DNA of 64,000 bases, taken from positions 209,700-273,699 of the forward strand of contig DAOSEN010000002.1 of assembly GCA_035363155.1 (NCBI GenBank), given 5' to 3'. Position numbers and translations under genes: made by a program. The notes beneath the pieces are model-generated. The model did not search any database, was not told the origin of the DNA, and was given only the letters and a program-made list of their open reading frames with translations. This stretch comes from Candidatus Cloacimonadota bacterium. GTDB taxonomy: Bacteria; Cloacimonadota; Cloacimonadia; Cloacimonadales; Cloacimonadaceae. Below are positions 44,098-58,524 of the stretch, one piece after another. Every line of letters starts with the position of its first letter. Within the stretch, counting starts at the first letter, position 1.

Positions 44098-46971
44098 ATG
44101 AAAGCAAGATTAATCTGGATTTGTCTGATTCTGTTGTCACTGAGCATTGTTTATGCAAATACCGGCTGGGAAGCCCCCCAGAGGAAAACCAGTCACCCGA
44201 TGCCCAGTGCGGATTTTTACCGCTGGAGCCAAGCCCGAGCCGATAGTGCTCATGGTTTTGACGTGCAAAAATACGTGATTGACCTCACGATCAATACCAG
44301 TAGCCAGCACATTAGCGGCAATGTCCTCGCTACTGTGGAAGCTACAGACGTCCTTCCCTTCATCAGTTATGAACTTGTCGGGCTTACCGTTAGTTCTGTG
44401 AAAGTAAATGGCATCATCAGCACTTTCACCCATACCAATGGCATCATCCAGATCCCTGTGAATGCCATTGCCGGACAGATCTTCACCACCCAGGTCTATT
44501 ACAGCGGCAATCCCCAGCTCAGTGCCAATCTCTACAGTATCGGCATGCATTTTGTCACAAATTCTGTCTTCACTATCTCCGATCCTGATGCCGGACGCCA
44601 ATGGTGGCCGTGTTATGACCACCCCTGGGATAAAGCCGTCGTGGATCTGCATATCACCATGCGCAACGATTGGAAAGTAGCCGCCAACGGACTGCGGCAC
44701 AGCATTACCGACAATGGTAATGGAACTGCCACCACCATCTGGCTGGGTGAACATCCCATGACCACCTATCTGGTTTGCATTACTGCCGGGCCTTATGTGG
44801 AGATCGCTCAGAGCGCTCTTGAAGGTGAACTGCCTATCCTCAGTTTCGTTACCCAGGCGCAGTACAACAATGCTATGATAGATTTTGCCCCGGTACCCGC
44901 CATGATCGATTATTTCTCTCAGATCTTTGGCCCCTATCCCTTTGAAAAATACGGGCATGCCACGGTAAGCATGAATACCTATGGTGCTATGGAACACCAG
45001 ACGATGACCACTCTGGGCAGCTATATCATCACCGGAAATCACACCCACGAGCTCACTATTGCTCACGAACTGGCACATCAATGGTATGGCAATGCGGTCA
45101 GTTTCTTGGATTTCAAAGATGTCTGGCTCTCGGAAGGTTTTGCTACCTATTCGGAACATTTATGGACAGACAAGGCCCTGGGCTGGGCTTCTGCCTGCGC
45201 CTATGTCCTGAGCAGTTACCACACTTACTACATGAACTGGGAAAATGCCAATGGAGCCGCAACAATCTACAATCCCAGCTTTTACAACTATTTCTCTCCG
45301 CCTTCCTATGAAAAAGGTGCCAGCGTCCTCCACATGCTGCGGCTCAAGATCGGCAATGCCAATTTCTTCCAACTCCTCTCCCAGTGGTTTGAGACCTACA
45401 AACACGGCAATGCCATCACCAGTGAGTTTCAAGCTCTGGCAGAATCCATCAGCGGTATGGACCTCACCCAATTTTTCCATCAGTGGATCTATGGCAATGG
45501 CATCCCCTCAGTGCAATACAGCGTCCTGAGCAAATCCACCCCGGAACCGCAGGTGAAAATCCTGGCTAAAAGCGCATCTCCCACGGCTACAGACTTCCAC
45601 CTGGAAGTTCCCTTCCGGATCGTGCACAGCACAGGTACAGACAGCCTCCTGGTGCACGCCACTCCCAATGGTGCCATAAACATCTTCACAGGCATCCCCA
45701 GCCCCGATGAGGTGATTGCGAATTACAACAATTGGACTCTGCTCCGGGGAATCACATCCGTAGCCCCCGTAATCACTGAATGCCTGGCTTCCAACGCCTC
45801 GGTGCTCTTGTCCTGGCCGGAATTTGGCTTTGGTGAGGGTTACCGGTATCTGCTCTGGCGCAAAACCACTACAGAGCAGACCTGGCAGCAGATTACACCC
45901 ATCCCTCTAACCCAGACCACATATACCGATACAAACGTGCAAAACGGCATCACCTACCAGTACCTCCTGCGCGCCATAGATTTGGATGATTTTGTCAGCC
46001 AGCCCTCAGCCCTTGCAAGCGCTACTCCGGTAGTCTTCAGCTTTGCCAGCTATCTCCTTGTCGTGGATGAATCCCGGGATGGCAATGGCACCAATATCAA
46101 TCCCAACGACCAGATGGTGGATGATTTTTATGCCGCTGCTCTGGCCCCAATCCCCTATTCCACCTGGGATATCGCCAGCCAGGGAGCCCCACCCCTCAGT
46201 ACCCTGGGAAACTACAAGATCCTCTTCTGGCACGATGATGACTTTTCGGAGAATCTCCTGCTCAGCCACCAGGGCCTGCTGTCCAGCTATCTGCTGGGAG
46301 GCGGCAAGGTCATCATTTCCGGCTGGAAAACCGCCTCGGTACTCATGCAGGAGTTTATCAACCGCTTCTCCCCCGGGCTGGAAATTTACTATGACAACGG
46401 AGCCAGCCTCATCAGCGCTGAGAGCCAGAACTATCCCACCCTGCTGGTGGATCCAAACAAACTGGTAGCCCCCTGGAATGGCATGCTGCCCATGATCTAC
46501 ACCTTTGGGGGTGATCTCCCCAGCCTCTATACAGCCAATATGCTTCCCAGCGCCAATGGCCAGGGACGCAGCCTCGCCTTTCATCAGGGCAATCTCTGCT
46601 TCTTTGGCTTCCCCCTCTACTTCATGCAAGCCGAAGGGGTGCGCAGCCTGATGCAACAGCTCCTGCCCGAGCTCCATCCTGTCTCCAGTGAGGATCCTCT
46701 CGCCAGCCCCAATGCCATGCACCTGAGCGCCTATCCCAATCCCTTCAATCCCAGCACCACCATCTCTTTCAGCCTGCCCCGTTCCGGAACCGCCACGCTG
46801 AATCTCTACAATCCCAAAGGCCAGAAAGTCCTCTGCCTTGCCACCGGAGATTTCCAGAAGGGTACCCACAGCGTGCAGCTCGATGCCAGCAGCCTGGCCA
46901 GCGGGGTTTACCTGCTCCGGCTCGATACCGCTGGACACCGCTTCACCCGGAAAATCACTCTGATGAAGTAG
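44098..46971 (+). CDS. M1-family aminopeptidase with Fn3-like and T9SS C-terminal sorting domains
   Basis: HELAHQWYGN and WLSEGFATY zinc motifs. The C-terminus is AYPNPFNPSTTISFSLP...LNLYNPKGQKV...GVYLLRLD...KITLMK. The start is taken at MKARLIWICLILL (44098) rather than the ORF-track 43906. Confidence 0.85.
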   Translation: MKARLIWICLILLSLSIVYANTGWEAPQRKTSHPMPSADFYRWSQARADSAHGFDVQKYVIDLTINTSSQHISGNVLATVEATDVLPFISYELVGLTVSSVKVNGIISTFTHTNGIIQIPVNAIAGQIFTTQVYYSGNPQLSANLYSIGMHFVTNSVFTISDPDAGRQWWPCYDHPWDKAVVDLHITMRNDWKVAANGLRHSITDNGNGTATTIWLGEHPMTTYLVCITAGPYVEIAQSALEGELPILSFVTQAQYNNAMIDFAPVPAMIDYFSQIFGPYPFEKYGHATVSMNTYGAMEHQTMTTLGSYIITGNHTHELTIAHELAHQWYGNAVSFLDFKDVWLSEGFATYSEHLWTDKALGWASACAYVLSSYHTYYMNWENANGAATIYNPSFYNYFSPPSYEKGASVLHMLRLKIGNANFFQLLSQWFETYKHGNAITSEFQALAESISGMDLTQFFHQWIYGNGIPSVQYSVLSKSTPEPQVKILAKSASPTATDFHLEVPFRIVHSTGTDSLLVHATPNGAINIFTGIPSPDEVIANYNNWTLLRGITSVAPVITECLASNASVLLSWPEFGFGEGYRYLLWRKTTTEQTWQQITPIPLTQTTYTDTNVQNGITYQYLLRAIDLDDFVSQPSALASATPVVFSFASYLLVVDESRDGNGTNINPNDQMVDDFYAAALAPIPYSTWDIASQGAPPLSTLGNYKILFWHDDDFSENLLLSHQGLLSSYLLGGGKVIISGWKTASVLMQEFINRFSPGLEIYYDNGASLISAESQNYPTLLVDPNKLVAPWNGMLPMIYTFGGDLPSLYTANMLPSANGQGRSLAFHQGNLCFFGFPLYFMQAEGVRSLMQQLLPELHPVSSEDPLASPNAMHLSAYPNPFNPSTTISFSLPRSGTATLNLYNPKGQKVLCLATGDFQKGTHSVQLDASSLASGVYLLRLDTAGHRFTRKITLMK

Positions 46972-47035
46972 GGAACTGAGTTCACACATCGTCTGCAAGA
47001 TCGGTTTGAGCCTATTCGGCTGGCTCTTGTTTGAA

Positions 47036-47098
47036 TTACGCTATCAATACGCTATCATTACGCATCGCATACGTATTGATGGCGTAATCATAGCGCAG
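47036..47098. repeat. REP-like palindrome of the GCTATCAATACG family
   Basis: ATTACGCTATCAATACG / GCTATCATTACGC pair with CGTATTGATGGC / GCGTAATCATAGC. The core is shared with 865-911. It lies directly 3' of a gene. Confidence 0.55.
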
Positions 47099-47129
47099 CA
47101 GGATGTTGGGCCATGGAGCAGGAAAGTAG

Positions 47130-47290
47130 TATAAAGTATCACCCAAACCTGCAAATGGGTATCACCTGTCACAGTGGTCGTAAAGGTTTATGGTGTGGCG
47201 AGATAGATAGGACTTGTTTTAGACTGTGTCACAGTGGTCTTTGGACGAAGTTGGACGTTTTTGTATCAGGGATTCTGCAAATTTGGACTG
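47130..47290. repeat. Transposase-proximal transposon end with spaced CTGCAAAT..GTATCA sites
   Basis: Sites at 47130-47141 (terminal), 47141-47165 and 47261-47285. Confidence 0.7.
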
Positions 47291-47921
47291 TTTTCAGGGT
47301 ATTTTCAGACCATCGAATTTGTAAAAACTATTAGCTCATTGTTTCCGCTGCGCCGTTGGTGCGTTTTCCCGTATCAGTAAATTACTCCCGGTCTGAATAG
47401 TGTCCATATGACTGGTTCACAAGTCTGATCCGGTGAAAACATGCTTATCTCACTCAGCAGCAAACATATGAGCTGCTTTTTAGGGCGTTTTGCCTCAGAG
47501 CATTTTCTATTTACGGGTTGTTGTCTTCCTGGCATTATTATGTGAAATATGGGGGAAGCAGATTTATGCTAAAAATCTCCCGAAATCTCCATTTGTTGGC
47601 GGAAAGGACTTCCCAAGTTATTGCCATGCAGCAGAGTAGCACCCAGCAATAACATGATGGAGGCGCTTATGAAAGCGACCAGTTACGAGTTAAAACAGAG
47701 GGCGTTCGGGTCAGACCACTGTGACACGTCGACCACTGTGACAGGTGTCACAGTGGTCCCGGAAAGGCGAAAAAACCCGGAGATGACGACCAATACTGGG
47801 TTTGAGCACTGTGACAGATGTCAAGGTGGTCCGAAATCAGGGAAATATGCCTCAAATGCAGATCAGTAATGAATTCAAGCACTGTGACACACAGAATAGC
47901 AGTTTTAATGTCGCAGTGGTG
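47167..47921. promoter_or_regulatory. Nine copies of TGTCACAGTGGTC (half-sites and palindromes) in the non-coding leader of the transposase gene
   Basis: - Forward copies at 47167, 47227, 47746, 47819 (2 mismatches) and 47909 (2 mismatches).
- Reverse copies at 47714, 47731, 47804 and 47877.
- 47731-47758 is a perfect 28-bp palindrome, GACCACTGTGACA-GG-TGTCACAGTGGTC. Confidence 0.75.
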
Positions 47922-47954
47922 CCAAAACCCGCTTATGTCCCGAGGAGGTTTAGG

Positions 47955-49898
47955 ATGAGCAAGCTCAAAGTAGAGGAGGTGAGAAAATCATCTCACATAC
48001 AAGAGCTCCCTGATGAATCCAAGCACTCCGAATTCATCGACTTTACACCTCGTGATAAGTTACCACTCAAATACGACCGAGAAGCCAGATTAATTGGACA
48101 TTTCTGCAACCTCGTCATCCGCAGGTTAGCCATATGCGGATCTAAGGTGGATGAGTGGCAACGGATCGTGCAGGAATACAACAGCGGCCAGTTAGTGCCA
48201 GAGTTGTATCAGATCAGAGGAGAACGCAAGGAACGGGCACTGAGGGTCTGGATCGACCAGTATGCCAAGTCTGACCGGGATATGTTCGCCTTGCTGCATA
48301 AGAGCAAGAACCTTACTCACAGCCGCAGGGTAACCGAGACCGAGACTAAGGTGCTACTCAGCATTCTGCTGCATCCCAACCAAATCACCATTGGAAGCGC
48401 CATCAACATGCTCAAGACCCAAGCCCGGCTGGGCTATTACGAGTCTCCAACCAGTAAACCAACGCTGAGACGCTGGTGCACTGAATGGATGCAAGACAAT
48501 CTAGCGACCTGGGAGCTAACCAGAAAGGGCAGCAAGTACGTGGCAGAGCACATAATCAAGACTATTCACCGAGATTCCAGACTACTGAGAGTGGGACAGG
48601 TATGGGTGGCTGATGGACATACTCTGGCCTTCGATATCCTCAATCCTCAGACCGGGAAAGCCCAACGCATGACCATGATCATGGTCTTCGACTGGGCGAG
48701 CCGCTATCCGGTAGGAGCCACGCTTGCCTTCTCTGAGGACAGCCATCACATCCAAGTAGCCTTCCGTAACGGCTTCCTTAACTGGGGCGCCTTGCCGGAG
48801 GCGGTGTATCTCGATAATGGCAAGGCATTCAGATCTAAGCTATTCCATGAGCATTGGGATGGGCACGATCTGGAAGTGGAGTTAGGTGGCATTTTCCCGA
48901 AGTTAGGCATCGAAGCCCACTTCGCTGAGAGCTATAATGCCAAGGCCAAGGTGATCGAGCGGTTCTTCAGGACCTTCCAGGAGCAGTTCGAACGCTTCAT
49001 CTCTTCCTTCAGAGGTTCCAACATCGCTAATAAACCATCAACACTGATGCGTAACGAGAAGTGGGCAAAGGCCTTGTTCAAATCACAGCCACCTACTATA
49101 GATGAGGCGATTCAGATGATCGGCTTCTATATCAGACACGTTTATGGCGAAAACGTGCACAGCAGCCTGAACGGCCAGACTCCCTGGCAGGTATTCAGTT
49201 CGGCTCCTCTGCCACAGGATAGGTTAGTACAGCCCGATAGGCTCAACTTCATGATGCTGGCTACCGAGCGCAAGGCGATCCGCAGTGAGGGCATTGTGTT
49301 CAATAAGCTACTCTACTGGCACGAAGCCCTTATCGATAACATCGGAAAACCGGCGATCATCCGCTACGACTTTGCTGATGCCAGGTGGATACTCGTCTAC
49401 GATACCAAAGACAACTATATCTGCCAGGCTGAACTCCGCAGAAGCCAGCATCCCTTTATTCATATCGATAAGAGCAACCCTGTAGCCCATCGGGAGCTCA
49501 ATAAAGAATACACCCACATCAAGAAGCTGCAACGACTGACCGAGCAACATGCCAGAGACTTCGTGATCAGTAATCAGGAAGCGGTGGATAGGCTGCTCGA
49601 ACCCTACCTGCAGGCAGCAATCGCATCCGATAACCCGACCTTCAAACAAGGCTCCATGATAGCACCTCCGGAACCGGGAGCCGAGCAGTTCATGGAGAAC
49701 CTGGAGCAGGAACTGGTCAAGGACCTGCCTGAACTTGAATTTGTACCCCCCGAGCAGCAGAACTATGGATCGGATGAGCAAGTCCCGGTCCAGGATGATA
49801 ACCCGGCTGAGGAACCCAAACTACAGCCGGAAGAGATTGAAGACGATGATGACGATAGTTTCTACTCAATGCTGAAGACAGTCGGCATCATAGATTAA
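47955..49898 (+). CDS. DDE transposase of the Mu/TnsB/TniA type
   Basis: Catalytic contexts VWVADGH, YLDNGKAF and AKVIERFF give D-67-D-48-E spacing (MuA is D-67-D-56-E, from memory). The C-terminal tail is acidic. The start is moved to the ATG at 47955, which has a GGAGG SD. Confidence 0.8.
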   Translation: MSKLKVEEVRKSSHIQELPDESKHSEFIDFTPRDKLPLKYDREARLIGHFCNLVIRRLAICGSKVDEWQRIVQEYNSGQLVPELYQIRGERKERALRVWIDQYAKSDRDMFALLHKSKNLTHSRRVTETETKVLLSILLHPNQITIGSAINMLKTQARLGYYESPTSKPTLRRWCTEWMQDNLATWELTRKGSKYVAEHIIKTIHRDSRLLRVGQVWVADGHTLAFDILNPQTGKAQRMTMIMVFDWASRYPVGATLAFSEDSHHIQVAFRNGFLNWGALPEAVYLDNGKAFRSKLFHEHWDGHDLEVELGGIFPKLGIEAHFAESYNAKAKVIERFFRTFQEQFERFISSFRGSNIANKPSTLMRNEKWAKALFKSQPPTIDEAIQMIGFYIRHVYGENVHSSLNGQTPWQVFSSAPLPQDRLVQPDRLNFMMLATERKAIRSEGIVFNKLLYWHEALIDNIGKPAIIRYDFADARWILVYDTKDNYICQAELRRSQHPFIHIDKSNPVAHRELNKEYTHIKKLQRLTEQHARDFVISNQEAVDRLLEPYLQAAIASDNPTFKQGSMIAPPEPGAEQFMENLEQELVKDLPELEFVPPEQQNYGSDEQVPVQDDNPAEEPKLQPEEIEDDDDDSFYSMLKTVGIID

Positions 49899-49907
49899 GG
49901 AGGATCA

Positions 49908-50624
49908 ATGAAACCAAACAAGCTCGTGCAAATCAAGAACGTGATCAAGACTGATGCCTGCATTCAGTTTCTGATGAACCGCCCCAAGACCGAGATGGTG
50001 GGACTGGGACTGATCTATGGCAAGCCCGGATTGGGCAAGACCACCTATGCCAGCCGGATCGCCTTTATGAGAGGCTACATCTATATGCGGCTGGAGGCTA
50101 CCAGCACTCCCAAGTCCTTCGCCAGCGACCTCTTAACCGCATTATACCGCCGGTTCAAACTGGGAGAGTACATCCCCAGTGGCACAACCAACAACCTGTT
50201 CAAATACTGCCTGAAGATCTTGGAAGACAATCCAGAGACGGTGATCGTGATCGATGAGATCGACTATGCCTTCAAACATGAAAAGCTGTTGGGAGCGATC
50301 CGGGACATCGTGGATGAGACCTTGACCATAGTCCTTTTAGTAGGTATGCAGGATGCCAAGACCAAGTTGGCCGGGATCAACAAGCACTACTTCGACCGCT
50401 GCAACTACTTCTATGAGTTCAAATCCGTAGGCAAGGACGATATCCGCAAGATAGCCAGGGAAGTAATGGACATCCCGGTCGACGAGGCAGTGGTTACCAA
50501 GATTGATGCACACTGTAGCGGTAACCTGCGCAGAGCCATGAAGATCATGTACATCCTCGAAGGTGCCAAGCTGAAGAATCCCAACCTCGACATCGCTTCC
50601 ATAGATCTGGGTAGGGACTTATGA
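49908..50624 (+). CDS. AAA+ transposition ATPase (TniB/MuB/TnsC-like)
   Basis: Walker A GKPGLGKTT and Walker B VIVIDEIDY. The SD is TAAGGAGG, and the gene starts 9 nt after the transposase stop. Confidence 0.75.
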   Translation: MKPNKLVQIKNVIKTDACIQFLMNRPKTEMVGLGLIYGKPGLGKTTYASRIAFMRGYIYMRLEATSTPKSFASDLLTALYRRFKLGEYIPSGTTNNLFKYCLKILEDNPETVIVIDEIDYAFKHEKLLGAIRDIVDETLTIVLLVGMQDAKTKLAGINKHYFDRCNYFYEFKSVGKDDIRKIAREVMDIPVDEAVVTKIDAHCSGNLRRAMKIMYILEGAKLKNPNLDIASIDLGRDL

Positions 50625-51277
50625 CCAGTAAGGAACTCGTACTCAACTTCGTCAATCAATACCGCAAGCCCTTTGATGCCAATCTGATCGCCGAGATGAC
50701 CGGCCTTGGTGTGAACGATGTTGAGCCCATCATCAGCGATCTGGTTGCCGATGGCACCATTAAACGGATCAGTGACCGGGAAGAGATCTATGCCCGTAGC
50801 AACCGCTTCATCACCAAGACGGCCAATCAAATGCGTCCCAACTGGTACTTCGATCCCCAGGCAGCCCTGGCTCTACTCAATCTGATCGAGCAGGGCAGCT
50901 ACACATCGATCAGAGGCATAGCCGCTGACTTTGGTAAGAGCCGCCAGTGGGTGTTCGTCTATCTGGAAGCCCTAGCATCCATGGGCGTAATCGGACTCAA
51001 TGAACATGGCTACTGTGTGCTCACCAAAAAGGACGTAAATAAGGTCGGCATCAAGATCAATCCAAGCATCCTCCGGCAGTTAAGATCTCATTGCTCTGAA
51101 CTGCGTAAACAGCAAAATCTACAGGAAAAGCTCGCAGCCTGGCAGCTCAAGTTAGAAGGCAAGGAACCCCTCGAAAAGGAGATAGAAGCCTTTGATAGCT
51201 TTAATCAGGTAACCATGCAAGCACTGAAGATTCTGCAACGCAAAATGACACTTGATGTTGATATTGCGATAGAATAG
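50621..51277 (+). CDS. 218-aa protein with two winged-helix-like segments and a coiled-coil tail; third gene of the transposition operon
   Basis: ATGA overlap with the ATPase gene. LIAEMTGLGVNDVEPIISDLVADGTIKRI and IRGIAADFGKSRQWVFVYLEALASMGVIGL both resemble wHTH. No zinc-finger (TniQ) motifs are present. Confidence 0.5.
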   Translation: MTSKELVLNFVNQYRKPFDANLIAEMTGLGVNDVEPIISDLVADGTIKRISDREEIYARSNRFITKTANQMRPNWYFDPQAALALLNLIEQGSYTSIRGIAADFGKSRQWVFVYLEALASMGVIGLNEHGYCVLTKKDVNKVGIKINPSILRQLRSHCSELRKQQNLQEKLAAWQLKLEGKEPLEKEIEAFDSFNQVTMQALKILQRKMTLDVDIAIE

Positions 51278-51591
51278 TATGGGTTTTTGCATGACAAGAT
51301 ACCTGGCTGTGCTGAGTTAACAGATTTTTCTCCTTTACAGAATTACTCTTGAAGACAAAGTGGACTTTATGTATGGAATACCTAAGCTCAGCCAAGTTAT
51401 CAACAAGGATTATGGATGTATGACTTCGAATAATACCCTTGGTTCTATTGCAGATTCGGTTAAGGAAACCGATAGCTATATCCTGTTGCCTGAAATAGAG
51501 CAGCAAGGAAAAAACATGTTTGCACAGAAGTCAGTAGTCGAAGCAATAAACAAGGCTTTTATGAAAATCTGTTTAACGGCAGGAGAAATTG

Positions 51592-51960
51592 TGACCCTGT
51601 CCCATTTTTTACACCACGTGTAAGTTGACACGTTTGCTATCGACATTGTTTTCATAGTTTTCTCTGAATTTCGCTGGAGGCATGTAGTTCAGGGCACTGT
51701 GGGGTCGATTCATGTTGTAATCCAACCGCCAATTCATGATCACATCTCTTGCTTCCAGTAAATCTCCAAAACAATTAAGGTCAAGACATTCTTTTCTGAA
51801 CTTGCCATTGAAGCTCTCGACAAAGGCATTCTGTTGTGGCTTCCCGGGAGCGATGAAGCTGAGATCAACCTTGTTATCCTGTGACCATTTGAACATGACT
51901 GAGCTACGGAATTCGGGGCGGGGAGACCGTAAAAAACAAAATGCTGCTGATGAAGTAGTA
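51592..51960 (-). pseudogene. 3' remnant of an IS3-family insertion sequence (C-terminal rve fragment plus one terminal IR)
   Basis: The minus-strand fragment ..IAPGKPQQNAFVESFNGKFRKECL...NMNRPHSALNYMPP is the end of an IS3-type OrfB. On the plus strand TGACCCTGTCCCATTTTTT starting at 51592 is the complement of the element's terminal inverted repeat, so on the gene strand the IS would end in ...CA, as IS3-family ends do. The N-terminal two-thirds of the transposase is absent. Confidence 0.7.
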
Positions 51961-52021
51961 TAACCATTAAGTGCGGAGCGGCGCTTGTCGCCGCTCCATA
52001 CCCATTAAACAGGAAGTCCAT

Positions 52022-53653
52022 ATGAAGAAGTATATACTGATGTCAATGCTCCTGATACCCTTGCTGGTATTTGGGATTACCAGACATGTGTCCCTGGATG
52101 GAACTCAGGACTATACGTCCATTCAAGCAGCTATCAATGATGCCCAAAGCGGAGATGTGGTATTGGTGCATCCAGGCCGCTATATTGAAAACATCGATCT
52201 CTCTAATAAACAGAATATTACTCTGACATCTATGGAATACACCACCGGAGATTCTACCTTCGTTAGCTCAACAATCATCGACGGCTCCGCAAACGCCAAT
52301 TCCACAGTTCTATTCTATGAAAACGCCGTGAATATCACTCTCAGAGGGTTTTCGATTACGGGTGGCAGAGGATATGATTACTTTAATGGAGCTTCACCTC
52401 GTCAGATATTCGGAGGTGGTATATTCTTCCACGCCAACTGTAGCGGTATTCTTCTTAACCTGCATGTGTATGGAAACAAGGCATCTATGGGGGGAGGGGT
52501 AGCTATTCTTCAGACCAATAGCGTTTCGCTTTCGAATGTCAACATCTACAACAATATGGCTCGTTATATTGGAGGCGGGCTTGATATCGGCAGTTCACCT
52601 CAGGGTGGTTCGCCTACTATAATCTTTTCCCAAACCGACAGATGCAGCATATACAACAATTTCGCCCAGTGGGGCATGGATATTCATTGGCATTATATTC
52701 ATTATGGCACGGTTTCAGTCTATCTGAAGAAGTTCACTGTGCCCAGTTATGAGCGATATTATGCCGATCATTATGATGCTGGATACGACGCATCTCCTTA
52801 TGTGGTGTTTGATGTTCAGGAAGCCTATCTGCAGCCGGTTGATGCGGACATCTATGTAAGCCCCCAGGGAAGTGATAGTAATGATGGGCTGAGCCCTAGC
52901 ACCGCCCTAAAAACTCCCTCGCTGGGCATACAGAGAATTGCCAGCAATCCAGCTCAACCCCAGACTGTCCACCTTATGGCTGGAACCCATCACAACGTCT
53001 TTATGGATGAGTATATCCCCATTGCCATTAAGGATTATACAATTCTGCAGGGTGTATCCGAATCTCAAACAAGGCTTTACGCCGCAAATCTGATCCGGGG
53101 CACAGGTGTAGTCACCATGGGAATCCAGCGGTATGGGATGCGGATGAAAAATGTGTCCATCTCCACAAGCATGGCATCTGCACTCTTCAGTTGGGAGATT
53201 TTTGATTGCCATTATGAAAACATTACTCTCTACACAGAATCTAAAAACAACAACATTCCTGAGAGATATTACTCGTCTGCGTCATTAGACATAGGTAATA
53301 TAGTTATGGATAATGGTAAGCACTTGTTCTCCGTTGTAAGTCTTGGTGGAGGACAAGAAAGCGAAACAATCGTTACCCCGGTCATGTCAGCAATGATCTA
53401 TCCCAATCCAATGCGCGGTAATACCAATATTGAAGTTAATACCACTGCCAAAAGTGTTGTTGACATCAGTATATATAATCTTAAGGGGCAGTTAGTTAGA
53501 AAAATCGATTCCGCTGAAATCTTAAAAGGCAATACATCCTTTATCTGGAATGGTTTAGCTGATGATGGCAAGCCTGTTGCACAAGGAATATACTTCTGTA
53601 GGATAAAGTCCCAAAACTATCTATTGACAAAGAAGCTGATTGTCTTAGATTAA
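52022..53653 (+). CDS. Secreted right-handed beta-helix protein with a T9SS C-terminal domain (transposon cargo)
   Basis: Signal peptide MKKYILMSMLLIPLLVFG. Beta-helix context ITLRGFSITGGRG..GGGIFF. The C-terminus is IYPNPMRGNTNIEV..ISIYNLKGQLV..GIYFCRIK..KKLIVLD. Confidence 0.8.
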   Translation: MKKYILMSMLLIPLLVFGITRHVSLDGTQDYTSIQAAINDAQSGDVVLVHPGRYIENIDLSNKQNITLTSMEYTTGDSTFVSSTIIDGSANANSTVLFYENAVNITLRGFSITGGRGYDYFNGASPRQIFGGGIFFHANCSGILLNLHVYGNKASMGGGVAILQTNSVSLSNVNIYNNMARYIGGGLDIGSSPQGGSPTIIFSQTDRCSIYNNFAQWGMDIHWHYIHYGTVSVYLKKFTVPSYERYYADHYDAGYDASPYVVFDVQEAYLQPVDADIYVSPQGSDSNDGLSPSTALKTPSLGIQRIASNPAQPQTVHLMAGTHHNVFMDEYIPIAIKDYTILQGVSESQTRLYAANLIRGTGVVTMGIQRYGMRMKNVSISTSMASALFSWEIFDCHYENITLYTESKNNNIPERYYSSASLDIGNIVMDNGKHLFSVVSLGGGQESETIVTPVMSAMIYPNPMRGNTNIEVNTTAKSVVDISIYNLKGQLVRKIDSAEILKGNTSFIWNGLADDGKPVAQGIYFCRIKSQNYLLTKKLIVLD

Positions 53654-53783
53654 CCAAACCAGCTTGTTGAAGCTATTAGGCGGGGGTTCGTCCCCGCCTG
53701 ATAGTGACAATCAATGGCTATGAAAACGACATGACGTTCAACAAGCAATCATACCATAGAATTATTATGGATAGGACTATATT

Positions 53784-56117
53784 ATGAATAAATATTCAGT
53801 GATAATACTGATGTGGATAGCACTGGGGGCTTGTTCAATAAAGGCAGGGATAATCGTAGTCGCGTCCGATGGCTCGGGTCAAGTTTCATCAATTCAATCG
53901 GGGATAAATATGGCTGCAGTTGGTGATACTGTGCTACTCTCACATGGAGTATGGTCTGGAGTTGCGGTTATCGACAATAAACCCATAACAATTGGAAGTT
54001 ACTACATTATTGATGGCGATACTACTCATATTACTCAAACTATCATAGATGGGGAAGACACACGAACTGGCATTATCATCAAAAACTGTGGTGGGGCTGT
54101 CGATACTCTAAGTGTAATTGGCTTAACAATAAGAAATTGCAGGAGTAATTGGTACCCCCATACATCTGATTACTCCATTGGGGGTGGCATTGGCATTGGA
54201 TTATCTGTAGTTAACGTGACAAGATGCGTGATTTATCATAATAGAGCCTATTTTGGAGGAGGGATAGGAGTTTCTCGATCATTTGTATATCTATATGGCA
54301 ATGAGATATACTCTAACAATGCCATTACATCGGGTGGAGGATTAAGTGGGCTTGGTTATAACAACATGTACATCTACTTCGATACCGAACGCCGTAACAG
54401 TATATATCTTAATAATGCCTCAAGAGGTTGTGATATCAGTTATGCATACGACAACATTCCTACCTCAGTTTATCTCAATAGAGGATCAGTTGACTATTTA
54501 AACCAGTATTTCTATTTTCTCCCCGATCAAACACCCGTATTCATCAATCAGCCTATGATTGTACAGGTTAACCAGGATCTTTGGGTCAGTCCCGATGGAG
54601 ATAATGATAATGACGGAGCATCTCCCCAAACGCCTTTACAAAATATCTCTTATGCTTTATCTAAGATACAGACATCCAGTAACACTACCCGCACAATTAA
54701 TGTGATGCCGGGGGTGTATTCTTGGAGTCAAACCGGTGAAGCTTTGCCTCTGCAACTGAAGAGTTACGTAAATTTGATTGGCTCAGCAATGGATGATGTC
54801 ATACTTGATGCTGAGCAATACGGAACATTTATCAGCGGAAGAGATGCTCAGGACTATATGAGTATTAAAAACATGACTTTGACTAACGGACACTCAACAC
54901 ATTATTATTTATTCTATCTGGACGTTGTTGTGAGTGGCAACACCAATGATATAACCGTGGAGAACATCCATATAAGAGACTCATGGGCTAAATCCGCAGC
55001 TTTAGTAATCGCATCCTGTTATAATATTACAGTAAACAATCTCATCATAGAGGATTCGCAGGTGGGGATTGGATTCTTTATATCTTGTTATGAGACTGGA
55101 TACTTTTCGAATTTCAGGGTGCAACGGCTAAGCCCCACAAACATAGACGCATACAATACATTCTGCCAGAGTGGAGGTATACAAAAGCCGTTAAGCGCTT
55201 CATCGCTTTATACTATCATCAATATATCTAACTTCTTGATAACGGATAACGTTGATACTTCTCAATTTTGGGAGAATATGACAAGTGGTTTGGCAATCAG
55301 TGTAGAGGGCGGAAACTGCGACTTGAATGTTAACAACTGCACCATAGCCAACAATAGCACTACAACCGAAGGTGCAGGATTCGGAATAAACTTGGAGAAT
55401 TGTAATGCGCAAGTGACTAATACTATAATCTCGGGAAACACTCCCTACGAAGTGGCAATGTTCTCTTATGACGAATCCACCTTTGCTGATGTTTCATTTA
55501 ACAATTGCCTCGTAACTGGCGGTAGCGATAGCTTCTTTGTCTTGGGTGGGGACATTACCCATACTTGGGCAGATGGCAATATGTTTGGATCTCCGTCTTT
55601 TCTGGGTGGAGATACTGACGATCCATTGTATTACAGCCTTGCAACAAATTCACCTTGTATAGACACTGGCACACCAGACACAACAGGGCTTGATCTCCCC
55701 CTCTACGATCTTGCGGGTAACTGGCGAATATGGAATGGTAGGATAGATATGGGCTGCTATGAATACGGTTCTGAGCCGTGGGTAAGCAATGATGATCCGG
55801 TAGTACCGGAGATACCGGCCATAAAACTGGTCGCATATCCCAATCCCTTCCAGACGTTTTCTAACATCAAAATATCTATACCGATTGAATACAGCAACAA
55901 AATGACTGGCATAAGTGAAGCGAGCATTGATATTTATAACATCAAAGGCCAGAAAGTGAAGGCGTTTTCCTTTGACCCAAGAAGTTCCCTCGAACAGGTC
56001 ATAACGTGGGATGGTAAGGATCAAAATGGAAACAACTGCCCCAGTGGTCTATACATTATAAATCTCACAATAGCCGGTGAACATGTAGCAAACAGAAAAG
56101 TAACTCTAGTTAAGTAG
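53784..56117 (+). CDS. Secreted right-handed beta-helix protein with a T9SS C-terminal domain (transposon cargo)
   Basis: Signal peptide present. Beta-helix context LTIRNC..GGGIGI..GGGIGV. The C-terminus is AYPNPFQTFSNIKISIP..IDIYNIKGQKV..GLYIINLT..RKVTLVK. Confidence 0.8.
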   Translation: MNKYSVIILMWIALGACSIKAGIIVVASDGSGQVSSIQSGINMAAVGDTVLLSHGVWSGVAVIDNKPITIGSYYIIDGDTTHITQTIIDGEDTRTGIIIKNCGGAVDTLSVIGLTIRNCRSNWYPHTSDYSIGGGIGIGLSVVNVTRCVIYHNRAYFGGGIGVSRSFVYLYGNEIYSNNAITSGGGLSGLGYNNMYIYFDTERRNSIYLNNASRGCDISYAYDNIPTSVYLNRGSVDYLNQYFYFLPDQTPVFINQPMIVQVNQDLWVSPDGDNDNDGASPQTPLQNISYALSKIQTSSNTTRTINVMPGVYSWSQTGEALPLQLKSYVNLIGSAMDDVILDAEQYGTFISGRDAQDYMSIKNMTLTNGHSTHYYLFYLDVVVSGNTNDITVENIHIRDSWAKSAALVIASCYNITVNNLIIEDSQVGIGFFISCYETGYFSNFRVQRLSPTNIDAYNTFCQSGGIQKPLSASSLYTIINISNFLITDNVDTSQFWENMTSGLAISVEGGNCDLNVNNCTIANNSTTTEGAGFGINLENCNAQVTNTIISGNTPYEVAMFSYDESTFADVSFNNCLVTGGSDSFFVLGGDITHTWADGNMFGSPSFLGGDTDDPLYYSLATNSPCIDTGTPDTTGLDLPLYDLAGNWRIWNGRIDMGCYEYGSEPWVSNDDPVVPEIPAIKLVAYPNPFQTFSNIKISIPIEYSNKMTGISEASIDIYNIKGQKVKAFSFDPRSSLEQVITWDGKDQNGNNCPSGLYIINLTIAGEHVANRKVTLVK

Positions 56118-56532
56118 TAAAATTGCCGTTTATATCGCCATTTCATAGAAGAGGCTGAGTGGCTGAGAAAACAGCACTGCAGTTTCATCTTATCTGCCCC
56201 ATACTTGTACAAAGGGTGAAACTGGATTCGCACAAACGGTGATAACAGATTTGCATAAAGGTTGAAACTCTGTCCGACCAAAAAACCAATCCGAAGGTAT
56301 TAGACCGATTGCTGTTGGCGAAGTTGTTCTCCGGCATATACTCCACTATTATAGTGATTCCTTTGCAGAATTTTAGTACTATCTCTTCATTAAGCCACTC
56401 GAACATATTTTCACGTATGGTCAGGGCAGCAATTTTGGTCTGAAATCATAATATCCAAAAATAAACCCCCAAAAGTCGGCACCAAGTCTTAGAATCTCCG
56501 TCTAACATATAAACGCTTTAAAAGGAGTTCGT

Positions 56533-56748
56533 ATGTTAAAGAGATCGGTGCTTGTTCTGGCAGTGCTGTTCGTCATCACGTTTTTGGCGGCTTCAGAGAT
56601 TGATTACTCAGCGATAGACCCATTCACGCTACCTGAGTATCTGGGTTCGCTAAACGACCCAGGAGTTGAGATCAGGTATGAGGATTCCGAAGGTGAGTAC
56701 ATCATAATCGAAATTGGCGACATCATTTATGTATTCTATGCCCTGTAA
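56533..56748 (+). CDS. Small (71 aa) secreted or membrane-anchored hypothetical protein
   Basis: Strong SD (AAAGGAG, 6 nt upstream) and an N-terminal hydrophobic signal, MLKRSVLVLAVLFVITFLAAS. Confidence 0.5.
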   Translation: MLKRSVLVLAVLFVITFLAASEIDYSAIDPFTLPEYLGSLNDPGVEIRYEDSEGEYIIIEIGDIIYVFYAL

Positions 56749-56898
56749 AGTCTTGGGGCATATCTCAAATATTGATTCTGCCACAAAACCTCAATAGAGT
56801 GATAGAAAAGAGTACAATTAGATGTTCTTGGTTAATGTGGGAAAGAGTCAAAAGAAATCATTACCAAAACTAATATCCAACTCACAAATGGAGGAAAA

Positions 56899-57090
56899 AT
56901 GAAAAGCTACATACCCCTTAGGTCATTGCTCGTTATGGTCATGCTAATTGCAGGAACACTGTTATCTGCGACAACAGTTTACGTAGTAGTAAACGGAGTG
57001 TATCACGATAAAGGTATAATCACCATAGATGTAGTTGCCAATGATATGATGGGCATCATCTGGAATATATTTTATCCGCCTGCAGGCTGA
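56899..57090 (+). CDS. Small (63 aa) secreted or membrane-anchored hypothetical protein
   Basis: SD is TGGAGGAAAAATG. The N-terminal hydrophobic segment is LRSLLVMVMLIAGTLLSA. Confidence 0.45.
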   Translation: MKSYIPLRSLLVMVMLIAGTLLSATTVYVVVNGVYHDKGIITIDVVANDMMGIIWNIFYPPAG

Positions 57091-57164
57091 AGGGATATCC
57101 TTAACTCATAAAGTGCTATTGATGAAATAGGTACATTGCCAGTCCGGGGATTTCAGATAACTTG

Positions 57165-57305
57165 ATACTGGATTTGCAGAAACCCTGATACTGGATTTGC
57201 AAAAACCCTGATACCAATTTGCAGAAATCCTGATACTGGGGTCTCACTAAAAACAGCGATTTGCAGCTAAAGTGATACTATTTGCAGATTTACTTGATAC
57301 TCTAT
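57165..57305. repeat. Distal transposon end with closely packed GATAC..ATTTGCAG sites
   Basis: Three head-to-tail 23-bp units, (C)CTGATAC(TGG/CAA)ATTTGCA(G/A)AAA(C/T), at about 57170, 57193 and 57216. Further copies lie at 57238 (partial), 57281 and the terminal 57292-57305. Confidence 0.75.
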
Positions 57306-57444
57306 AAGTAGATTGTTGGCTGCATGGCTGGAGGAAAGCCTTCGGCTGTTTTTTACTTGACAATCCTGCATAACGATCAAATCTGTAAAATAGTATAACA
57401 GGCTTTCAATAGTAAGAAAAATCGATCCTCGCCAAGGAGAATAT

Positions 57445-58524
57445 ATGAAACAAGCTGCATTCTTCCTGCTTATGCTTATGCTCTGCTCGATAGCCCCTGC
57501 GCAGTCCGCACTTCAGGATTATACTTTTGCTTATTCGGTCGGTACCTATGAAGAGATCACCGGAGGCTTGCTCTTGGGGACAGAATCCAATGATGAACAG
57601 AGGTTTTTGGATTCCTTATCGTTGGATGGAAGTCAAATCATGGTTCGAGGACCTGGTTTCCCTATCGGATTTGAGTTCAGTTATGCTGGCAGTACTTTTG
57701 ATCGTCTGGCAATCAACACCAATGGCTGGATTTGCCTCGGGCAAAGTTCTTTGGGGCAATTCGCTGTTGTCATGACATCCAGTAGTTACATTAATACACC
57801 ATTAAGCACGATATCCACTACAAATTTCGGCGAAAACGTCCAGCTTGTTGCCAGAATTGCATCTTTTGCACGAGATCTGGAAGGACAACCAGGATCTTCC
57901 ATCATGATCAAGACTATAGGAACATCTCCCAATCGGATTTGTGTAGTTCAATGGAAGAATTACAGACGAAGAACTACCTCTGGAGATAGCTTCAATTTCC
58001 AGATCAGGCTGCATGAATCTAACTCCATGATTGAGCTATCTTATGGAACTATGACTGCAGCATCTTTGTTCTCCCTACAAGTGGGATTACGAGCAGCACC
58101 AATTGATCCTGTTAGTAACTTTTCCGTGAGGACTACAACAGATTCATCTGGTCACAATTGGGATCAATCTATACCGGGAATCACTGCTGGAGCAATAATG
58201 AGGATTTCACCTACCGTCTACCCCCTTCCCGGCACCAGGTTCACGTGGACTCCTCCCAGCGCATCCTCAATTCCTCTGGCTCCGCAGAATCTCAGGATCG
58301 AAATCATCGCAGCGGACGTGCATCTTAGCTGGGATGCGGTAGTTCAGGATTGCGAGGGAAATCCCATCCTTGTAGATGCTTATACCATATATTACAGTGA
58401 GAGCGCTGATCCCGAGGCTCAGTATGAGCTCCTGGGCAGCAGTGACACCACTTCCTACGTCCACGAAGGCATTGGTACTACCCAGCCCCGGGGCTTCTAT
58501 AAGGTATATGCCGTAACTTTTTGA
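57445..58524 (+). CDS. Secreted hypothetical protein with a C-terminal Fn3-like domain
   Basis: Signal peptide ..SIAPAQS and SD AAGGAG. The C-terminus is APQNLRIEII..VHLSWDAV...GFYKVYAVTF. Confidence 0.6.
   Translation: MKQAAFFLLMLMLCSIAPAQSALQDYTFAYSVGTYEEITGGLLLGTESNDEQRFLDSLSLDGSQIMVRGPGFPIGFEFSYAGSTFDRLAINTNGWICLGQSSLGQFAVVMTSSSYINTPLSTISTTNFGENVQLVARIASFARDLEGQPGSSIMIKTIGTSPNRICVVQWKNYRRRTTSGDSFNFQIRLHESNSMIELSYGTMTAASLFSLQVGLRAAPIDPVSNFSVRTTTDSSGHNWDQSIPGITAGAIMRISPTVYPLPGTRFTWTPPSASSIPLAPQNLRIEIIAADVHLSWDAVVQDCEGNPILVDAYTIYYSESADPEAQYELLGSSDTTSYVHEGIGTTQPRGFYKVYAVTF

Follow-up and report, generated by a model that had tools for sequence, protein, structure and literature searches.

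A natural Mu-type transposon of Cloacimonadota, very probably derived from a Mu-like transposable phage

Structure and gene content of the element

The window, by which we mean the whole 64,000-nucleotide stretch of Cloacimonadota DNA analysed here, contains an element of 10,177 bp with imperfect inverted ends (47130-57306; Table 1). Its left terminus begins TATAAAGTATCACC... at 47130 and its right terminus reads ...GATACTCTATA, with 57306 as the last base; the terminal inverted repeat comprises 27 nt (81%). A 5-bp duplication, AGTAG, abuts the element on both sides, as stated in the preliminary description, which had the left copy in its right place and the right copy one base too low. In all copies of the element the outermost bases are 5'-TATAAAG...CTCTATA-3', that is, TATA...TATA, in contrast to the TG...CA termini of Mu, Tn7 and most of their relatives.

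Table 1. Features of the element and its flanks (positions in the window)
Feature	Position	Strand	Basis
Target-site duplication, left copy (AGTAG)	47125-47129	.	single AGTAG at the empty site in L008 and L104
Left end, attL-like	47130-47340	+	sites L1, L2, possible weak L3, two GTCACAGTGGTC motifs
258-bp segment in place of the repressor gene and repressor promoter region of the phages	47341-47598	.	phage homology absent
Early control region with homology to the early promoter of the phages and to the beginning of their Ner-like gene	47599-47954	+	
Gene A, MuA-like DDE transposase, 647 aa	47955-49898	+	Pfam, PHROG, DDE triad
Gene B, MuB-like AAA+ ATPase, 238 aa	49908-50624	+	Pfam, PHROG, Walker motifs
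Gene C, predicted tandem winged-helix and coiled-coil protein, 218 aa	50621-51277	+	AF2 model
Fourth-gene remnant	51426-51623	+	translation MTSNNTLGSIADSV... is the start of the 374-aa ORF of L020
IS3-family transposase, C-terminal fragment, at the fourth-gene break	51609-51896	-	rve_3, 2.9e-28
Cargo gene 1, secreted beta-helix-like protein with T9SS C-terminal sorting domain	52022-53653	+	
Cargo gene 2, T9SS-sorted surface protein, 777 aa	53784-56117	+	FlgD_ig, Por_Secre_tail, choice-of-anchor Q
Degenerate internal right-end repeat units, fossil right end	56205-56284	-	similarity to L097, colinearity with L020
Right end, attR-like	57149-57306	-	sites R1-R6
Target-site duplication, right copy (AGTAG)	57307-57311	.	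read from sequence

The motif GTATCA-N7-TGCAAAT occurs with zero mismatches at one left and four right sites, and within the 64 kb only inside the element ends. When up to two mismatches are allowed in the same 20-bp motif there are 8 matches, against 2.2 expected, and none of 100 shuffles reaches 8; a looser scan (GTATCA-N5-9-TGCAA) returns two left and five right sites and none outside the element ends in the 64 kb. The left sites, L1 (47136-47156, terminal) and L2 (47263-47282), lie 127 bp apart, with a possible weak L3 at about 47303-47322 and two GTCACAGTGGTC motifs (47168-47179 and 47228-47239) within the same end. On the right, R1 (57280-57300) and R2 (57259-57278) are accompanied by R3-R5, arranged head to tail with a step of 22-23 bp (57217-57236, 57195-57214 and 57172-57191), as well as by a degenerate R6 (57149-57168). 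The scans thus recover the asymmetry described before, with sites spaced at the transposase-proximal end and head-to-tail units at the distal end.

The likely true start of gene A is the ATG at 47955, which follows GAGGAGG; the mechanical open reading frame runs from 47802. Numbered from this ATG, the DDE triad consists of D220, D287 and E335, with the spacings of 67 and 48 already read from the letters, and the protein has the RNase H-like core and the Mu-transpos_C (domain II-beta) barrel of Mu-type transposases. It matches Pfam Mu-transpos_C (PF09299) at 1.6e-14 (54 bits, cut-off 21.7) and PHROG 310 transposase at 5.6e-76, and reaches 25.6 bits with Pfam rve, below the rve cut-off. The best solved relative of A is the TnsB of ShCAST (6e-12), closer than any solved MuA chain, and the nearest GenBank relatives are transposases of Mu-like phages, at most 29% identical. 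Gene B has no N-terminal extension; Walker A lies at residues 38-45 and Walker B at 112-117. The Walker motifs, the Pfam matches to AAA_22 (1e-13) and TniB (2.9e-6), both above cut-off, and the match to PHROG 296 'DNA transposition protein' (2.4e-23) agree with its earlier assignment as a TniB/MuB-like regulator. The start of C overlaps the stop of B (ATGA) and C is translationally coupled to B. The AF2 model of C (mean pLDDT 83) predicts one winged helix at residues 1-60, another at 79-134 and a coiled-coil hairpin at 150-217, the very parts proposed for this protein at the outset; Foldseek returned generic tandem winged-helix matches only, and no Pfam family lies above its cut-off. The dN/dS values of A, B and C are 0.06-0.12, 0.02-0.14 and 0.11-0.25, respectively. 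C is under purifying selection, some of which may have acted while the gene was in phage genomes, since the transposon and phage forms recombine. Intact and under purifying selection, with the DDE triad in A and the Walker motifs in B, the three genes look functional.

In a comparison with phage-type loci, the 258-bp segment next to the left end shows no homology to them; it is colinear in the transposon copies L022, L025 and L028. The early control region behind it is homologous to phage positions 6472-6690 and contains, 0.6-0.8 kb from the left end, a palindromic GACCACTGTGACA/GTCACAGTGGTC site array (47714-47758, 47804-47831 and, weaker, 47877-47921), whose motif gives 12 matches where 3.9 are expected, a number reached in none of 100 shuffles. 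The array has been kept in other copies, the transposon copies having 7-11 CACAGTG-type sites. A vestigial ORF (MKATSYE..., from 47669) is truncated with respect to the 185-200-aa Ner-like gene of the phages. Across lineages, the CACAGTG-type array tracks with the Ner-like HTH (61-100% versus 38% or less), and its presence follows that domain, not clearly the N-terminus of A. The transposons lack the Ner-like HTH, and their control circuit may therefore rely in part on a phage resident in the cell.

A fourth gene of 370-374 aa, present in L011, L013, L015 and L020, is truncated in the window element, where colinearity with L020 ends at 51586; the IS3-family fragment covers positions 294-369 of 369 of the transposase. 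The cargo consists of two type IX secretion (T9SS) surface proteins, and elsewhere of defence-like genes. Cargo gene 1, called as 543 aa in L001, matches Por_Secre_tail (5.7e-11), FlgD_ig (1.9e-10) and TIGR04183. The internal repeat units are 80-86% identical to the tandem units of the right end of phage contig L097 and line up colinearly with units of the true right end in L020. ORF and Pfam/domain searches of the element found no gene for TnsA, TniQ or a resolvase, as had been reported, and no repressor, lysis or virion genes lie in 47130-57306.

Mobility and relationship to Mu-like phages

The 10.2-kb element is a real mobile element that has moved recently. In the near-identical strains L008 and L104 the site is unoccupied, with one AGTAG, and the orthologous site in a 77% relative (L100-L102) is likewise empty; the empty site predicted at the outset, ...GCAGGAAAGTAG continued by ATTGTTGGCTGC..., has an exact match in Logan assemblies of a near-identical strain. 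Copies with other 5-bp duplications, equally foreseen, exist: five related elements were found in other genomes of Cloacimonadota, which brings the complete elements to six (9.8-12.3 kb). All six have the same ends, and no two have the same duplication (AGTAG, TCGCC, GCCAC, TTCCT, TCTAT and ATTGC). From the left end through gene C, and over about 140 bp of the right end, the elements are conserved; the cargo varies. It is the empty sites and the differing duplications that argue for mobility, transposition itself being what we infer from sequence comparison, and the description of a complete mobile DDE and AAA+ transposon holds in view of the ends, the empty site and the related copies.

Mu-like prophages of Cloacimonadota contain A, B and C in this order too, together with an S24 repressor, a Ner-like gene, DUF3164, small and large terminase subunits and Mu F, as well as tail genes (repressor, lysis and virion genes are present in the relatives L016, L032, L098 and others). 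Transposon and phage-type A-B-C are 75-78% identical in nucleotide sequence, the two forms intermingle in the trees of A, B and C, yet the transposon copies have a repressor-deletion junction in common. The left end is 82-85% identical over 211 bp to those of the phage-type loci L032 and L024, and the first 45 bases are the same in transposon L025 and phage-type L024. The right end is 82-93% identical to those of the five other elements and of the IMG/VR phage contig L097, where it has the same architecture and adjoins tail genes; on these identities, the asymmetry of the ends is inherited from phage attL and attR. Transposons and phages co-occur: the DHSO01 and JAHDQK01 bins are MAG sets with both forms, and one sample, 3300038675, yielded both L009 and L097. 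The transposons, at 10-12 kb, are about a third as long as the phage contigs of roughly 35-38 kb. The A gene of L025 is disrupted, and L016-L018 represent a truncated prophage of the same family.

Because the repressor, lysis and virion genes of its relatives are absent, the element is a derivative and not a phage. The shared trio and ends, the PHROG matches and the intermingled trees establish its phage descent at the level of sequence. Thus, we conclude that it is very probably an autonomous transposon of the Mu type, descended from a Cloacimonadota Mu-like transposable phage and still exchanging modules with such phages. On this reading the phage left end, the early promoter/operator region, A, B and C would have been retained, along with about 160 bp from the right end of the phage. 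The S24-type repressor would be gone, as would that half of the Ner-like regulator which binds DNA and all genes downstream of C, where the variable cargo would now lie. The chemistry, like the parts played by B and C, is inferred. By analogy with Mu, A would bind the 20-21-bp sites (two or three spaced on the left, six on the right) through a bipartite N-terminal region, pair the ends and nick them at their 3' termini. The complex of A and the ends would then be captured by ATP-bound B located on target DNA, and strand transfer would proceed with a 5-bp stagger and little or no target sequence preference. Since there is neither a TnsA-like 5'-end nuclease nor a resolvase, movement is probably replicative or by nick-join-repair; cointegrates are expected because TnsA is absent (as in ShCAST), and host recombination would resolve any that form. 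The missing resolvase, formerly taken as an unexplained gap, is ordinary for Mu-type elements and no anomaly.

Comparison with known systems and alternative readings

With Mu and Mu-like phages the element shares a Mu-transpos_C DDE transposase followed directly by an AAA+ target-capture ATPase, and a 5-bp duplication, made with low target specificity in the six elements. As in Mu, spaced left sites beside the early genes are combined with packed right sites (several putative transposase sites of about 22 bp per end) and a putative regulatory array near the left end, and there is no resolvase or fixed target site. In contrast to Mu, the element carries cargo instead of a repressor, a complete Ner-like gene and lysis/virion genes. 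A is shorter than MuA by about 49 N-terminal residues, its first D being residue 220 and that of MuA what we take to be D269. The element also differs from Mu-like phages in its conserved third protein, of which no homologue was found in any GenBank phage. MuB has an N-terminal HTH domain (PMC11292022), whereas B, with Walker A at residue 38, has none. Laboratory mini-Mu and Mud constructs, in which Mu ends enclose a payload and A and B may or may not be included (PMC3145075), resemble the element in layout: the left end is followed by an early region with A and B, then by the payload and a short right end; its lineage, however, is natural and diversified, with many cargo sets, has kept the third gene and lacks a repressor. 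The type V-K CAST ShCAST likewise has a small AAA+ regulator and a three-gene operon in addition to TnsB, but the element is devoid of TniQ, Cas12k, a guide RNA and a directed target, and its third protein is of an unrelated fold. Tn5053/Tn402 (TniA, TniB, TniQ, TniR) and Tn552 (p480, p271, BinL) also combine a MuA-like transposase and a MuB-like ATPase with multi-repeat ends, and Tn5053 makes a 5-bp target duplication; TniQ, the serine resolvase, the res site and the res-hunting preference are not features of the element. Tn7-like transposons differ in their TnsA partner and TniQ/TnsD selector, and in place of directed targeting or a dedicated attachment site the element has unrelated target sites.

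C lies directly after B in 77 of 77 loci and has 134 representatives in 1.84 billion proteins. As judged from these loci and searches, it is a conserved early gene of Cloacimonadota Mu-like phages, confined to one lineage of phages and transposons; most likely, it is a DNA-binding accessory or regulatory factor of the transposition module, made with B. The preliminary description had considered it a possible new target selector, and the element could then belong to a Tn7/Tn5053-type family in which the 218-aa C replaces TniQ or TnsD. The gene order resembles tnsB-tnsC-tniQ, a type V-K TnsB is the best solved relative of A, B exceeds the Pfam TniB cut-off, and C, predicted to bind DNA, is coupled to B. 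We nevertheless find this very unlikely, because the trio is native to Mu-like phages, the carrier phages themselves lying at unrelated sites, and because no common motif, consensus or genomic landmark was found among the six insertion sites. Moreover, C has no TniQ Pfam match at E values up to 0.1, no TniQ among the top 50 Foldseek PDB matches shown, no zinc-finger features and no conserved cysteine among its invariant columns, and the recognition helix of its second winged helix is nearly invariant across lineages although their ends and insertion sites differ. A target-selector role for C is therefore unsupported; of the earlier placement in a Mu/Tn7 superfamily, the Mu-type part is retained and a free-standing Tn7/Tn5053-type family with a novel selector is not.

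That the locus is a decayed, immobile prophage remnant, its matching flanks a relic of the original phage insertion, appears extremely unlikely. Prophage decay by deletion is common, and the disrupted A gene of L025 and the truncated prophage would fit it; however, the reduced architecture, including the 258-bp repressor replacement, recurs at six or more unrelated sites, each with a perfect 5-bp duplication, near-identical strains differ in whether the site is occupied, the three genes A, B and C are intact (dN/dS 0.02-0.25), and the ends are kept while the cargo differs. Compatible with a phage-derived autonomous transposon, though in itself rather unlikely, is the view that the element is a mini-Mu of natural origin which travels as a hitch-hiker with related helper phages. 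With the left end and the Ner-like operator array kept, a relative, resident or infecting, could regulate the element in trans, and headful packaging of the element with adjacent host DNA into the heads of that relative would move cargo between cells; Mu-type packaging starts at the phage left end. In sequence, the ends of transposons and phages are interchangeable, the kept array tracks with the HTH that the transposons have lost, the two forms share MAG sets and a sample and recombine their modules, and the sizes stand in a ratio of about one to three. The correlation of motif and Ner-like HTH may, however, partly reflect physical linkage, and since the element encodes its own A and B no helper is needed for it to transpose. 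We also regard as unlikely that these are natural mini-Mu satellites with a three-part transposition machine, in which C is the obligate partner of a 'headless' MuB-like ATPase and helpers, acting through the retained left end and Ner-type operator array, switch the element on or off and also package it. C would then supply in trans the DNA-binding or bridging function of the MuB N-terminal or MuA enhancer-binding region, and helper phages would carry the genes for surface proteins and defence from one Cloacimonadota cell to another; if this holds, such satellites would represent an extant intermediate stage between transposable phages and cargo-bearing transposons like Tn7 and Tn5053.

Implications for Mu-type elements and Cloacimonadota

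Mu, Tn7, Tn5053 and Tn552 have the transposase and ATPase pair in common, and the interconversion of phages and transposons has been inferred only from deep phylogeny. With both forms in one phylum, near-identical ends, 75-78% identical core genes and a mapped deletion junction, the transition from phage to transposon can be studied directly, and there are signs of ongoing exchange between the two forms. Because it is tied to the MuB-like ATPase and has survived the loss of other phage genes, C is a concrete candidate for a new Mu-type accessory factor. In practical terms, the system is compact: it has three genes and defined ends, carries 5-8 kb of cargo and shows no evident preference for particular sites. 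It also contributes to an understanding of how genes for surface proteins and defence spread in this uncultured phylum, which is common in anaerobic digesters.

Insertion sites, other copies and ends

The element is mobile, and two independent lines of evidence, an empty insertion site and other copies, bear this out. While an exact 24-mer search of the JGI metagenomes for the empty site gave no match, exact-protein look-ups with the flanking 359-aa gene and its homologues located it in Logan assemblies. In two contigs of a near-identical strain (L008 and L104) the left flank joins the right flank directly, with a single AGTAG (...ggagcaggaaAGTAGattgttggctgc...), exactly as the preliminary description of this DNA had predicted; in a 77% relative (L100-L102) the orthologous site is likewise empty and reads AGCAG. 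Moreover, a scan of GTDB genomes with a profile of the third protein, C, returned 77 loci, nearly all in Cloacimonadota MAGs, and the copies with different 5-bp duplications that had been proposed as a check were found among them: five complete elements with termini of the identical type and other duplications (see table). No common motif was found in the insertion flanks of the window element and these five. Conservation among the copies is limited to two stretches, one running from the left end through gene C (47130 to ~51200) and the other covering the final ~140 bp.

A near-perfect palindrome (ATTACGCTATCAATACG...CGTATTGATGGCGTAAT) lies just outside the left end; four of six empty-site Logan contigs (L008, L100, L101 and L102) start within it. 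Candidate explanations are a terminator, a site for a protein or a breakpoint of the assembly. Eleven family members, mostly on short contigs of 2-14 kb (L027, L033, L035, L050, L054, L057, L065, L068, L078, L086 and L094), carry MAG labels of Gammaproteobacteria, Bacteroidales, Fermentimonas, Spirochaetaceae, Treponema or Firmicutes; they are either mis-binned Cloacimonadota contigs or instances of transfer beyond the phylum.

The element begins with TATAAAGTATCACC... and ends, on the + strand, with ...CTTGATACTCTATA; its terminal inverted repeat spans 27 nt (81%) and, unlike that of Mu, lacks terminal TG...CA. Both ends and the AGTAG duplication had been recognised before, but the right-hand coordinates then given were one base too low. 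Zero-mismatch matches to GTATCA-N7-TGCAAAT are confined to the element ends; if up to two mismatches are allowed, 8 matches are found where 2.2 are expected (0 of 100 shuffles reach 8), and a looser scan of the 64 kb finds two sites at the left, five at the right and none elsewhere. The two left-end sites are separated by 127 bp, while at the right end R1 and R2 are adjacent and are followed by a gap, by R3-R5 head to tail at 22-23 bp and by a degenerate R6. A further two to three degenerate right-end units are located 0.9 kb inward of the true right end and resemble phage-type units (GTTTCAACCTTTTTGCAAAT) more than the element's own. The homologous stretch in the L020 element is its real right end, so that ~885 bp with two small ORFs were gained here or the right end was swapped; the addition or replacement probably arose by recombination between elements.

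Features of the element, its relatives and the compared phage-type loci
Locus	Position	Feature	Detail
Window	47035-47095	Near-perfect palindrome	61 bp; 35-95 bp left of insertion point
Window	47125-47129	Left AGTAG	
Window	47130-57306	Complete element	Duplication AGTAG; 10,177 bp
Window	47130-47340	Phage left end	82-85% identity over 211 bp
Window	47341-47598	Unrelated sequence in place of repressor gene	258 bp
Window	47599-47817	Phage early control region	
Window		HTH half of Ner-like gene	Deleted
Window; L009; L016	47669-47869; 6925-7293; 6626-7228	Annotated proteins upstream of A	82, 122 or 200 aa
Window	47714-47758, 47804-47831	GTCACAGTGGTC palindromic pairs	
Window	47877-47921	GTCACAGTGGTC pair	Weaker
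Window	48035-50970	A-B-C	75-78% nucleotide identity to phage
Window	51426-51896	Gene after C	Cut at ~65 codons, adjoining IS3-family transposase fragment
Window	56205-56284	Degenerate right-end units	
Window	56285-57169	Addition or right-end replacement	~885 bp
Window	57307-57311	Right AGTAG	
L020		Complete element	Duplication TCGCC; 11,801 bp
L022		Complete element	Duplication GCCAC; 10,363 bp
L023		Complete element	Duplication TTCCT; 9,816 bp
L025		Complete element	Duplication TCTAT; 12,329 bp
L028		Complete element	Duplication ATTGC; 12,311 bp
L022	4689-10369	Defence-like cargo	
L025	4497-12289	Defence-like cargo	
L028	10685-18455	Defence-like cargo	

Descent from a Mu-like phage

The element descends from a Mu-like phage and would work like Mu, and it is itself no phage. 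A 51% homologue of C sits in a prophage (L016-L019) in which a divergent S24-type repressor and a 200-aa HTH protein in the Ner position are followed by A, B and C, and then by DUF3164, HTH_17, the small and large terminases and Mu F. When all loci were mapped by tblastn, dozens of Cloacimonadota contigs showed this layout, and it is also present in IMG/VR contigs (L098). The region-by-region comparison in the table is with L024 and L032, both phage-type loci; over its first 45 bases the left end of L024 is identical to that of the L025 transposon. At the other side, a 35-kb IMG/VR contig (L097) terminates in a right end built the same way, with 23-bp units in five tandem copies, adjoined by tail and tape-measure-like genes. 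Thus, the asymmetric multi-site ends of the element correspond to phage attL and attR, in a Mu-like arrangement; the asymmetry noted in the preliminary description holds, but it is not specific to Tn7.

The start of gene A is most likely the ATG at 47955, after GAGGAGG, which gives a protein of 647 aa with catalytic residues D220, D287 and E335. It contains Mu-transpos_C (1.6e-14) and rve domains and matches the phage transposase family PHROG 310 (5.6e-76); its closest solved relative is a type V-K TnsB (6e-12), and its closest GenBank phage relatives are transposases of Mu-like phages, at no more than 29% identity. Gene B (238 aa) matches AAA_22, TniB and the MuB family PHROG 296 (2.4e-23). 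MuB has an N-terminal domain (PMC11292022); the Walker A motif of B begins at residue 38, and B therefore lacks a MuB-like one. The dN/dS values between copies (0.06-0.12 for A, 0.02-0.14 for B and 0.11-0.25 for C) indicate that all three genes are under purifying selection. Gene A is disrupted in L025, one of the complete reduced copies.

The window, L022, L025 and L028 share, in colinear form, the 258 bp that replace the repressor gene; the left part of the reduced form thus has one origin. When A, B and C are placed in neighbour-joining trees, however, transposon-type and phage-type sequences are mixed, which indicates recombination between the two forms.

Gene C and the early control region

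Genes B and C overlap at the stop codon of the former and the start of the latter; C is intact in all of the complete reduced copies that were examined. An AlphaFold2 model built from a 42-sequence alignment (pLDDT 83) has two winged helices and a coiled-coil hairpin, in agreement with the segments first recognised from the sequence of this 218-aa protein. Foldseek matches of the model are generic tandem winged-helix proteins only, such as SelB and ScpB (TM ~0.25), with no TniQ among the top 50 PDB matches, and a PDB sequence search gave no match. A cryptic TniQ or a member of a known regulator family was considered and rejected, since Pfam, NCBIfam, PHROG and PADLOC return only sub-threshold, generic winged-helix matches. 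The family is small, with 134 representatives after 50% clustering in a set of 1.84 billion proteins, and is absent from GenBank phages. Most likely, C binds DNA and serves the transposition module, expressed along with B, as an accessory or a regulatory factor. An accessory role in the transposition complex is possible, regulation of the early operon only slightly less so, and a role as target selector is very improbable.

A second motif, GTCACAGTGGTC, is present in two copies in the left end and forms palindromic pairs spaced by ~73 bp. It occurs 12 times against 3.9 expected (0 of 100 shuffles reach 12), and both the other transposon copies and some of the phage lineages keep the array. Binding of the array by C was rejected as the foremost explanation because the array is present at C identities of 30-33% and absent at 49%. 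Nor does its presence track the repressor HTH across lineages. In contrast, it follows the HTH of the Ner-like protein, whose identity is 61-100% in motif-bearing lineages, 49% in one with a variant motif and at most 38% where the motif is missing. The simplest reading of this pattern is that the sites are putative Ner-type operators, although physical linkage may contribute. The transposons retain the sites without the Ner-like HTH, which suggests either that resident phages act on them in trans or that they have another function, for example as an enhancer.

An ORF that precedes A, of 82 aa here and of 122 aa in relatives, is rejected as a real gene. Its repeats are putative binding-site palindromes that can be translated in several frames, and the ORF itself is what remains of the phage Ner-like gene after truncation to the 5' part. 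The 5' half of the proteins annotated here consists of palindromic repeats, reading HCDT or TVTGVTVV by frame, and only the phage versions have an HTH in the 3' half. A search of 46500-58000 against Rfam gave no non-coding RNA match, and sigma-70 promoter and terminator scans of the left region remained at chance level.

Transposition, cargo and neighbouring copies

The element shows precise insertion, a 5-bp duplication, multi-site ends and intact DDE and AAA+ genes; the steps that follow are modelled on the established Mu pathway. A would bind the end sites, form a paired-end complex and nick the 3' ends; B-ATP on target DNA would capture this complex; strand transfer would proceed with a 5-bp stagger, and its product would then be replicated or repaired. 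Since both TnsA and a resolvase are missing, cointegrates would rely on host recombination. Unlike Tn7-like elements, the element has neither TnsA nor TniQ, nor an attachment site, and unlike Tn5053 and Tn552 it has no resolvase. Searches of the available literature gave no description of naturally occurring cargo transposons with a Mu origin, nor any of the C family, an absence that is in itself no proof of novelty.

Cargo is unrelated between copies. In the window it comprises two surface proteins with T9SS sorting, together with an IS3 fragment and a fourth gene that is truncated, and T9SS surface proteins are also carried by the relatives L011, L015 and L020. Other relatives carry an FGE-sulfatase-domain protein and defence-like genes, with an IetA-like AAA+ protein directly after C, DUF4268/PDC-S11 proteins, Nmad3 and a UDG-family protein. 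The gene after C encodes 370-374 aa in L011, L013, L015 and L020, with a weak Sigma70_r2 match (1.2e-4); L020 also has a piece of the same IS3-family fragment, in reverse orientation.

Two distinct complete elements, L023 and L028, reside in opposite orientation and with differing duplications on the same contig, DJGX01000035.1 (ranges 42079-62678 and 72245-92820). The ranges are ~10 kb apart and the loci about 20-30 kb, a proximity that bears on whether target immunity of the Mu/Tn7 style exists in the family.
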